Part shown: positions 40,455 to 43,400 of the stretch, in pieces
Position numbering within the stretch: position 1 is the first letter of the stretch
Layout: each line of letters begins with the position of its first letter
Source: Escherichia coli
Lineage (GTDB): Bacteria > Pseudomonadota > Gammaproteobacteria > Enterobacterales > Enterobacteriaceae
Reading direction: 5' to 3' (one strand)
NCBI RefSeq assembly: GCF_003334765.1
Contig: NZ_QOWT01000012.1
DNA: 64,000 nucleotides
Program-made: the position numbers

Positions 40455-43400
40455 ATTTGCTTAACGTAGAGTGAAGATTAACCTATCTGCCCATTTCCCA
40501 AATGTTTAACGCGGCGCTTAACTTCTTCCTGCTTACCGGCGTTAAATGGACGTGCATCCGGGCTACCTAAATATCCGCACACGCGGCGAGTTACCGACAC
40601 ACGGGAGGCGTCATGGTTACCACATTTCGGGCAAGTGAAGCCTTTGCTGGTGCACTCGAACTCACCGGTAAAGCCACACTCGTAGCACTCATCAATCGGT
40701 GTATTGGTGCCGTAATACGGTACATGCTGATAGCTGTAATCCCAGACATCTTCCAGCGCCTTCAGGTTGTGCTGAATGTTTGGATACTCGCCGTAGCAAA
40801 TGAAACCACCGTTCGCCAGCGGCGGGTAAGGCGCTTCAAAGTCGATCTTGTCGTACGGGTTCACCTTCTTCTCCACATCGAGGTGGAAACTGTTGGTGTA
40901 GTAACCTTTATCGGTCACGCCCGGCACCACGCCAAACTCAGCAGTATCGAGACGGCAGAAGCGGTCGCACAGGTTTTCACTCGGCGTGCTGTAGAGACTG
41001 AAACCATAACCCGTTTCTTCTTTCCACTGATCCACTGCCTGACGCAGACGTTCAACAATGGCGATACCTTTCGCGCGAAGCTGCTCGTTGTCGTAAACAT
41101 GCTCGCCGCCGAACAGCGCGTTAATGGTTTCGTGGATGCCGATGTAACCCAGCGAAATAGACGCACGACCGTTTTTGAAGATTTCAGAAACATCATCGTC
41201 AGCATTGAGACGCACGCCACAAGCACCTTCCATATAGAGGATCGGGGCCACGCGCGCTTTCACGCCTTCGAGACGAGCGATACGGGTCATCAGCGCCTTA
41301 CGTGCCAGCACCAGACGTTCATCCAGCAGCTTCCAGAAGGTGGCTTCATCGCCTTTTGCTTCCAGAGCAATACGCGGCAGGTTCAGGCTGATCACGCCGA
41401 GGTTGTTACGACCATCGTGGATCTGCTCGCCGTTTTCATTTTCCCACACGCCGAGGAAGCTGCGGCAGCCCATCGGGGTTTTAAACGAACCGGTGACTTT
41501 CACTACCTGATCGTAGTTCAGGATATCCGGATACATGCGCTTGCTTGCGCACTCCAGCGCCAGCTGTTTGATGTCGTAGTTCGGATCGCCTTTTTTATGG
41601 TTCAGACCATCGCGAATCGCAAACACCAGTTTCGGGAACACCGCAGTTTTACGGTTTTTACCGAGACCTGCGATACGGTTACGCAGGATAGATTCCTGAA
41701 TCAGGCGCGATTCCCAGCTGGTGCCCAGACCAAAACCAAAAGTTACAAACGGCGTTTGACCGTTGGCGGTATGCAGGGTGTTTACTTCGTACTCCAGCGA
41801 CTGGAAGGCATCGTAGCACTCTTTAATGGTACGAGAGTTAGCGTAGCCTTCTGCGTCCGGGATGCTCCACTCTTCTGCGGTCTTGCGATGTTTGTTGTAG
41901 CTGGCGGTGACAAACGGTGCCAGCACTTCATCGATACGGTTAATGGTGGTGCCGCCATAAATATGGCTGGCAACCTGAGCAATAATCTGCGCAGTTACCG
42001 CGGTTGCCGTTGAGATCGACTTCGGCGGTTCAATCTCGGCGTTCCCCATTTTAAAGCCCTGGGTCAGCATGCCTTTCAGGTCGATCAACATGCAGTTGAA
42101 CATCGGGAAAAACGGTGAGTAATCGAGATCGTGATAGTGAATATCGCCACGCTCATGTGCCTGCACCACGTCACGCGGCAGCAGGTGCTGACGTGCATAG
42201 TGTTTAGCCACGATCCCGGCCAGCAGGTCGCGCTGGGTTGGAATCACCTTGCTGTCTTTGTTGGCGTTTTCGTTGAGTAACGAGGCGTTGGTCTGCTCGA
42301 CCAGACCACGGATCTCCTGGTTCAGGCGACCGCGTTTTTCACGTTCAATGTCGCGATCGTGACGGTACTCGATGTAAGCACGAGCCAGTTGTTTGTATGG
42401 ACCCGACATCAGCTGGTTTTCAACTGCGGTCTGGATCTCATTGATATCCACCTGGTTGCGGCCCTGCATCTGCTCGCTGACAACCGCGGCAACAGTGGCG
42501 CAATAATCGGCATCATCGACTTCCGCTGCTTTAGCTGCACGCAGAATCGCTTCTTTGATGCGCTCTGATTTAAACGGCACTTTGCAGCCGTCTCGTTTCA
42601 TCACATGCGGTGTCATGATCGCTCCATATTTTTAAGAACAGGTTATCCACAGAAATTGGGAAAGGCGTTTTCCGGTTTTTTCGTTTCGTTTTCCGGTGCT
42701 TTCCGCAATCGCCATCCGCTTATCCACAACGCCGCACCTTTTTCGTGGGGAGCTGTAGTAGCAATTATAGTCGATTAATACAACATATTGGGTTGGGACG
42801 CATTTTAAAGTCTATATATAGTGCTTTGCATCAAGGATGTTTGAACTTTTTTTGATGTAGCTCAAAGTAAAAAGCAGAGCGTACGGATGACGGGCGCTAC
42901 AGCGTTATGTAAATTTTTTAATGAATTTGCTGGTTGAAAAATCAACAAAAACAACATGCTGACAGACAAAACCCCGGAATGACCGGCATTACCGGGGCTT
43001 AGGGAAGATTTACTTCTGTAACCACCAGACAGCCTCAAAAGGCCGTAAATTCATGGCACAGGGTTGTGGTGAGGCTTCTTCGTAGTTATGCATCACAAGC
43101 TGCCAGTTGCCGCGCATTTGCCCTGGCTGCCAGGGTTGGATCTCACGGCTAAGGTTGGCAATGACCAGCAAGGTTTGCCCCTTCCATTCACGGCGATAGC
43201 ACCACAATACAGGGCTGTTTGGCAGCAGATCCTGGTAATTGCCCCATGTCAGGATGGCTTCCTGCTTACGCAGTGCGATTAACTTTTGGTAGGTGTAAAA
43301 CACCGAGGAATCATCGGCCAGCGCGGCTTCTACGTTGATTTGTTGATAGTTATCGCCCAGGCCAATCCACGGTTCGCCAGCCGTAAACCCGGCATTATCG

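Follow-up and report, generated by a model that had tools for sequence, protein, structure and literature searches.

Does the FNR-like motif that lies far ahead of the start codon of nrdD, the gene for the anaerobic ribonucleoside-triphosphate reductase of Escherichia coli, control that gene, or is it a stray match to a short consensus? We addressed this question for a 64,000-nucleotide stretch of the E. coli contig NZ_QOWT01000012.1 (assembly GCF_003334765.1), hereafter the window. The original prediction, made from the sequence alone, had placed a 9/10 match to the FNR consensus at 42852-42865, within a 393-bp region between nrdD and treC. Our analysis indicates that this motif is almost certainly FNR-2 (site 2), the upstream FNR operator of the nrdDG promoter, which is an already known site, published and experimentally validated.

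Identity of the Flagged Motif

The sequence bears out both the position and the match exactly. The 14-mer at 42852..42865 reads TTGATGTAGCTCAA on the plus strand and TTGAGCTACATCAA on the nrdD coding (minus) strand, and agrees with the 14-bp inverted repeat TTGAT-N4-ATCAA at nine of its ten specified positions, the sole mismatch being a C for A (plus strand) at the outermost-but-four position. On the nrdD strand it resolves into TTGAG-CTAC-ATCAA, that is, half-sites of the FNR type (TTGA, 4-bp spacer) and not of the CRP type (TGTGA, 6-bp spacer). The intergenic region is likewise confirmed by the list of open reading frames (ORFs) and by RefSeq, which annotates nrdG, nrdD, treC and treB at an identical E. 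coli locus: with the nrdD start codon at 42616..42614 and the stop codon of treC at 43012..43010 (minus strand for both), a gap of 393 bp is left at 42617-43009. Counted from the A of the nrdD ATG, the centre of FNR-2 lies 242.5 bp upstream.

Three lines of published evidence bear on this 14-mer. First, the FNR-binding experiments of PMC10425943 (J Biol Chem 2023) employed a 54-bp nrdDG promoter duplex, TACTTTGAGCTACATCAAAAAAAGCTCAAACATCCTTGATGCAAAGCACTATAT; it equals window positions 42868..42815 (minus strand) at all positions but the spacer base 42845, a polymorphism between K-12 and the window, and it holds the flagged 14-mer as site 2. That study describes two FNR motifs in the promoter, at -33.5 (site 1) and -64.5 (site 2), and its anoxic size-exclusion chromatography with small-angle X-ray scattering showed two [4Fe-4S] FNR dimers on the 54-mer. 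Second, mutagenesis and in vitro binding were reported by Roca 2008, which, as summarised in PMC10425943, found site 2 to have the higher affinity and to be necessary and sufficient for activation, with site 1 auxiliary; the FNR dependence of nrdDG goes back, according to the citing papers, to reporter experiments in Boston & Atlung 2003 and in Roca 2008. Third, Table S6 of Myers et al. 2013 lists exactly TTGATGTAGCTCAA for nrdD at an FNR peak from chromatin immunoprecipitation with sequencing (ChIP-seq), with a PatSer score of 15.68 that ranks tenth among the ChIP-bound predicted sites (nine score higher). The match between the 14-mer of the window and this entry places FNR on the site in vivo under anaerobic conditions. 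In the array-based counterpart of this method (ChIP-chip), Grainger et al. found a target at nrdD, and Federowicz et al. list the gene as "nrdD, nrdG, Activation, Known". The proposal that the site serves nrdDG is thus supported by both the binding oligonucleotide and the ChIP-seq entry, and the published sites do not map elsewhere, nor is this one unoccupied.

The second site of the published pair, FNR-1 (site 1), is found in the window at 42821..42834 (minus strand) as TTGATGCAAAGCAC. It spans -40..-27 with its centre at -33.5, lies 31 bp centre-to-centre downstream of FNR-2, and is the weaker, auxiliary site. FNR-2 itself spans -71..-58.

Conservation across the Enterobacteriaceae

A scan with the NrdD N-terminus, using one genome per species, yielded 80 loci. 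The Enterobacteriaceae set comprised 56 sequences including the window, from Escherichia, Salmonella, Citrobacter, Enterobacter, Klebsiella-like genera, Kosakonia, Kluyvera, Buttiauxella, Cedecea and others. The FNR-2 core TTG-N7-TCAA was present in all 56. In the 52 loci that are in register with the downstream NrdR box 1, positions 1-3, 6-7 and 11-14 of the site are invariant; the left half is variable at positions 4-5, with A in just 3 of 52. The remaining four loci also possess the core, shifted by one base. The distance from FNR-2 to NrdR box 1 is constant within 1 bp.

An FNR-1-like site exactly 31 bp downstream of FNR-2 was scored in 50 of the 56 loci. FNR-1 has diverged in the other six, four of which also have a 1-bp deletion there. 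Most other genera have TTGATGCAAATCAC at the FNR-1 position (47 of the 52 in-register loci). By this comparison, the tandem 31-bp arrangement is typical of the Enterobacteriaceae, which is a small addition of the present work.

Variation within E. coli spares these elements. All 5426 complete E. coli genomes contain the 393-bp region, many of them with 100% identity. Relative to K-12 MG1655 it has three substitutions, at window positions 42958, 42905 and 42845, all of them outside the FNR sites, NrdR boxes, -10 hexamer and DnaA boxes. Further, in eight E. coli genomes chosen across the identity range, the FNR sites, NrdR boxes and -10 hexamer are identical, with differences only at -51, at -49 and further upstream. 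The 49-mer of the window that spans both FNR sites occurs unchanged in about 3000 of the 5426 genomes and the K-12 version in 355. Position 42845 (-51), in the spacer between the FNR sites, is T in the window and C in K-12 MG1655 on the nrdD strand, and the published binding studies used the K-12 allele; a further E. coli allele has C to A at -49.

Promoter Anatomy and the Start Site

The transcription start (+1, an A) was placed at 42794 on the minus strand from the published site centres of -64.5 and -33.5, both of which yield the same +1. From this position the transcript would have a leader of 178 nt, which agrees with the long 5' untranslated region that the original prediction had deduced from the distance to the start codon. 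Its description of the site as far upstream holds with respect to the start codon and fails with respect to the promoter, since the site lies within the activator region of the latter. The second FNR site, the NrdR boxes and the DnaA boxes were all absent from that prediction.

A -10 hexamer TAAAAT, inferred from the published start, lies at 42802..42807 (minus strand; -13..-8), and TAAAAT or TAGAAT occupies this position in 55 of the 56 Enterobacteriaceae loci. A sigma-70 scan of the region returned only a plus-strand, antisense match. The promoter is overlapped by two 16-bp palindromic boxes with the layout of an NrdR operator, namely 31-32 bp between centres: NrdR box 1, GCACTATATATAGACT, at 42809..42824 (minus strand; -30..-15), and NrdR box 2, ACCCAATATGTTGTAT, at 42778..42793 (minus strand; +2..+17), the latter 31 bp centre-to-centre from the former across a 15-bp linker. 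Box 1 shares 4 bp with FNR-1. Both boxes lie inside the 57-bp nrdDG duplex (window 42829..42773) that was shown in PMC12176259 to bind NrdR-ATP/dATP with a dissociation constant of about 150-160 nM.

Canonical FNR-activated promoters have either a class II site at -41.5 (narG, nirB, dmsA, pflP6) or a class I site near -61.5 or -71.5. The nrdDG promoter resembles them in its regulator, in its TTGAT-N4-ATCAA operator and in its anaerobic activation; it differs in having centres at -64.5 and -33.5, with FNR-1 lying where a -35 element would be. Thus, there is no site near -41.5 overlapping the -35 region, as class II would have it. For class I, with a single upstream site at -61.5, -71.5, -82.5 or -92.5, the centre at -64.5 is 3 bp off the nearest position, a second site is present, and the start from which these distances are counted was itself back-calculated.

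Several points weigh against this account of the promoter. The two centres match neither class I (-61.5, -71.5) nor class II (-41.5) geometry, and PMC10425943 calls the mechanism of nrdDG activation "a remaining mystery". The start at 42794 is back-calculated from the published centres and not read from 5'-end data. Myers 2013 recorded no significant FNR-dependent change in nrdD expression in glucose minimal medium (Category 3). Finally, it is the entire core promoter of about 115 bp that is conserved, including an A-tract and a CAAAC motif between the FNR sites, so the conservation supports the promoter as a unit and not the FNR motif specifically.

The unusual geometry also gives a foothold to a different view of the promoter, in which FNR does bind and the main or a second start lies about 7 nt downstream of a perfect -10 consensus, TATAAT, at 42769..42764 (minus strand), that is, near 42757. 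FNR-1 would then be centred near -70.5/-71.5 and FNR-2 near -101.5/-102.5, which is the phasing of a classical class I promoter, and NrdR box 2 would cover the -35 region. This hexamer stands at +26..+31 of the published transcript, just 3' of NrdR box 2, and is kept as TAnnAT in about 49 of the 56 loci; the published positions of -64.5 and -33.5, for their part, are non-canonical and unexplained. Against it, the papers that cite the primary mapping consistently give -64.5 and -33.5, the TAAAAT or TAGAAT hexamer is properly spaced from the published start in all but one of the loci, and the essential site is FNR-2 and not FNR-1. We recognised no -35 element upstream of the TATAAT on reading the sequence, and the supplement text of two E. 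coli studies of transcription start sites contains no nrdD entry. We consider a start near 42757 quite unlikely. The TATAAT itself could, judging by its sequence and position, act either as a second promoter or as a sigma-70-dependent pause element.

Chance Matches and Other Occupants

The motif taken in isolation would not establish function. Allowing no more than one mismatch, the 64-kb window contains four matches to the FNR consensus, against 2.95 +/- 1.78 expected from dinucleotide shuffles, and 32 of 100 shuffles reach four; scaled to a region of 393 bp, the expectation is about 0.02. Because the bare count is thus not above chance, the case for function must rest on context, conservation and published experiments. 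A functionless chance match would be in keeping with this count, and also with the fate of the only 10/10 consensus in the window, TTGATAGCCATCAA at 53408-53421 inside yjgI (bdcA), which Myers 2013 Table S6 lists as not FNR-bound. However, the exact 14-mer is at an FNR ChIP-seq peak, its binding in vitro and its mutagenesis are published, and its core is invariant throughout the Enterobacteriaceae set at a fixed distance from the promoter. The published occupancy and mutagenesis already refute a functionless match, and the prospect that the flagged motif has no function is vanishingly small.

The yjgI match falls at exactly the coordinate predicted from the nrdD site in the Myers table, so that collinearity between the window and K-12 extends over this stretch. 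Another 9/10 match, TTGATAGTAATCAC at 45906-45919, falls within the treB ORF and does not appear in Myers 2013 Table S6.

It is just as improbable that the site is a CRP operator or acts on treBC: CRP and FNR do recognise related 5-N-5 inverted repeats and the treC end is only 145 bp from the site, but the half-sites are TTGAg/ATCAA and not TGTGA/TCACA with 6-bp spacing, the published occupant is FNR and not CRP, and transcription of treC, though it runs in the direction of the site, stops at a strong terminator before reaching it, which leaves the site downstream of treBC. This intrinsic terminator, at 42968..43000 (minus strand), consists of a bulged GC-rich hairpin followed by UUUU (-17.1 kcal/mol, z = -2.11). 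The terminator scan reported none for treC, the hairpin being bulged, and the terminator was confirmed by folding instead. Since it lies upstream of both FNR sites, these serve nrdDG only.

The DnaA-Bound Leader

The nrdDG leader of 178 nt (42617..42794, minus strand), which carries a Shine-Dalgarno GGAG at 42625..42622, contains the only two perfect DnaA boxes in the window, against 0.40 expected. The distal one, a perfect consensus at 42720..42728 (+67..+75), reads TTATCCACA on the plus strand and TGTGGATAA on the nrdD strand, and on reading the sequence we recognised no partner for it. The proximal one, TTATCCACA at 42643-42651, has a degenerate partner, TTAAGAACA, 2 bp away at 42632-42640. 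Together they form the arrangement TTAAGAACA-gg-TTATCCACA at 42632..42651 (plus strand; +144..+163), which ends 6 nt upstream of the Shine-Dalgarno sequence. A double DnaA box, as defined by the Wade lab in PMC11317965 (2024), consists of two TTATCCACA-related 9-mers that are oriented alike, have 2-3 bp between them and lie under a DnaA ChIP-seq peak. The proximal pair has these properties and equals the published nrdD entry. That study counts just 32 perfect DnaA boxes genome-wide and reports a DnaA ChIP-seq peak at nrdD with 62-fold enrichment and a listed double DnaA box; we find that the summit of this peak maps between the two boxes of the leader.

About 50 Enterobacteriaceae loci retain the two boxes without change and at a spacing of 77-78 bp, and the sequence between them is not conserved. 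Two loci, from Escherichia sp. ESNIH1 and Pseudescherichia vulneris, keep the FNR-2/FNR-1/NrdR core, have lost about 105 nt of leader and are left with at most one imperfect DnaA box. Thus, the long leader is dispensable in at least some lineages.

The search for RNA structure in the leader gave weak signals at most. An Rfam scan of 42400-43200 at E <= 1 found no leader family, just two chance-level matches (a small nucleolar RNA and an archaeal antisense RNA). The fold of the whole leader was not significant (z-score -0.76), and RNAalifold predicted 0 pairs both for the whole leader (about 50 genera) and for the segment between the boxes. Single-sequence folds of 42652-42719 give, in most genera, a hairpin closed by GGGAAG...CUUCCC (GGAAAG/CUUUCC in E. 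coli), with inner stems that vary. When the duplex energies of the hairpin arms were compared within and across sequences, own pairs were 2.65 kcal/mol better on average (median rank 0.25), a weak signal, and the E. coli value equalled the cross-pair mean. The minimum free energy of the inter-box segment relative to dinucleotide shuffles gave a mean z of -0.88, with 43 of 49 below 0 and E. coli at -0.35, again a weak signal.

The rise of NrdD protein in a delta-DARS2 strain (PMC12371093) is compatible with a DnaA effect. A tentative and rather doubtful proposal, drawn from the layout of these elements, is that the leader may be a DnaA-operated module with the two boxes, the TAnnAT element and possibly the hairpin as its parts, in which DnaA bound inside the transcribed region would block or pause RNA polymerase. 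If the proposal were true, anaerobic synthesis of deoxyribonucleoside triphosphates would be gated by oxygen through FNR, by the dATP/ATP ratio through NrdR and by the state of the replication initiator through DnaA.

Comparison with Related Promoters

The promoter of the window is in its essentials that of K-12 nrdDG (Boston & Atlung 2003; Roca 2008; Myers 2013): the two are identical in the 14-mer, in FNR-1 and the 31-bp spacing, in the pair of NrdR boxes, in the -10 hexamer and start position, and throughout the leader. It departs from K-12 in the three substitutions of the 393-bp region, one of them at -51 between the FNR sites. The class Ia ribonucleotide reductase operon of E. coli, nrdAB, shares the pair of NrdR boxes and the presence of DnaA boxes, in its case a double DnaA box, and both operons are DnaA ChIP-seq targets; in contrast to nrdDG, nrdAB has no FNR input. 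The DnaA boxes of nrdDG lie in the transcribed leader (+67..+75 and +144..+163).

Outside the Enterobacteriaceae, the loci from Yersinia, Serratia, Pectobacterium, Dickeya, Edwardsiella and Hafnia (L058-L083) have a single FNR-like site that resembles FNR-2, e.g., TTGTTCTACATCAA. Among the sampled families, the tandem arrangement thus appears to be specific to the Enterobacteriaceae. What Yersinia, Serratia, Pectobacterium, Edwardsiella and Hafnia have in common with the window is an FNR-2-like site, a pair of NrdR boxes at a distance of 31-32 bp, and perfect DnaA boxes. The spacing differs: whereas the Enterobacteriaceae sites lie 42 bp (FNR-2) and 11 bp (the second site) from the centre of NrdR box 1, the single site of L058-L083 lies 28-29, 40 or 51 bp from it, in steps of about one helical turn. 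The DnaA boxes differ as well, for in these loci they (TTATCCACA then CATCCACA) come directly after NrdR box 2 and in the orientation opposite to that in E. coli. The promoter elements of L058-L083 are about 100-210 bp upstream of nrdD. The comparison of these layouts suggests that the nrdDG promoter may have been rearranged in the lineage of the Enterobacteriaceae.

Other Features of the Locus

The nrdD coding sequence, the gene under FNR-2 control, occupies 40478..42616 on the minus strand (ORF list and RefSeq annotation) and is followed by nrdG at 39856-40320. Upstream of FNR-2, a moderately conserved block, GCGCCCGYCATCYGTAC, is seen at 42881-42897, 18-34 bp from the site. Beyond it lies an AT-rich stretch (42925-42950) with the inverted repeat GTTGAaaaaTCAAC; this stretch differs from one E. 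coli lineage to another, and strain N1420 has a 12-bp deletion there. We rejected GTTGAaaaaTCAAC (42934-42947) as an FNR site, as its spacing (TTGA-N4-TCAA) is wrong for FNR and other lineages of E. coli have a different sequence in its place. Small ORFs in the nrdD/treC gap were likewise discarded as being without support.

Regulation of nrdDG and Its Significance

The following picture of nrdDG regulation combines published steps with others that the positions of the elements suggest. Under anaerobiosis, according to the published work, a [4Fe-4S] FNR dimer occupies FNR-2 at -64.5 and a second dimer the weaker FNR-1 at -33.5, on the same face of the DNA, with FNR-2 necessary and sufficient for activation and FNR-1 acting only as a booster. 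From -64.5, FNR would probably act in a class-I-like manner on the C-terminal domain of the RNA polymerase alpha subunit; this domain may be positioned on the A-tract that is conserved between the FNR sites. Transcription would then proceed from 42794, as derived from the published positions, through the 178-nt leader ahead of nrdD. NrdR with ATP/dATP, for which binding is published, covers -30..-15 and +2..+17, and presumably represses by occluding -30..+17 in competition with FNR-1 and RNA polymerase. DnaA, by its published binding, occupies its boxes within the transcribed leader.

This is textbook-level regulation, mapped in 2003-2008 and confirmed genome-wide in 2007-2014, and for that reason re-finding FNR-2 adds nothing new. 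It does illustrate that a real operator could be recognised from its sequence alone by a first-stage reader. The non-canonical activation geometry and the DnaA-bound leader have likewise been noted already in the recent literature. For E. coli, FNR-2 is the oxygen switch of the class III ribonucleotide reductase, which provides the DNA precursors, and hence permits replication, without oxygen.

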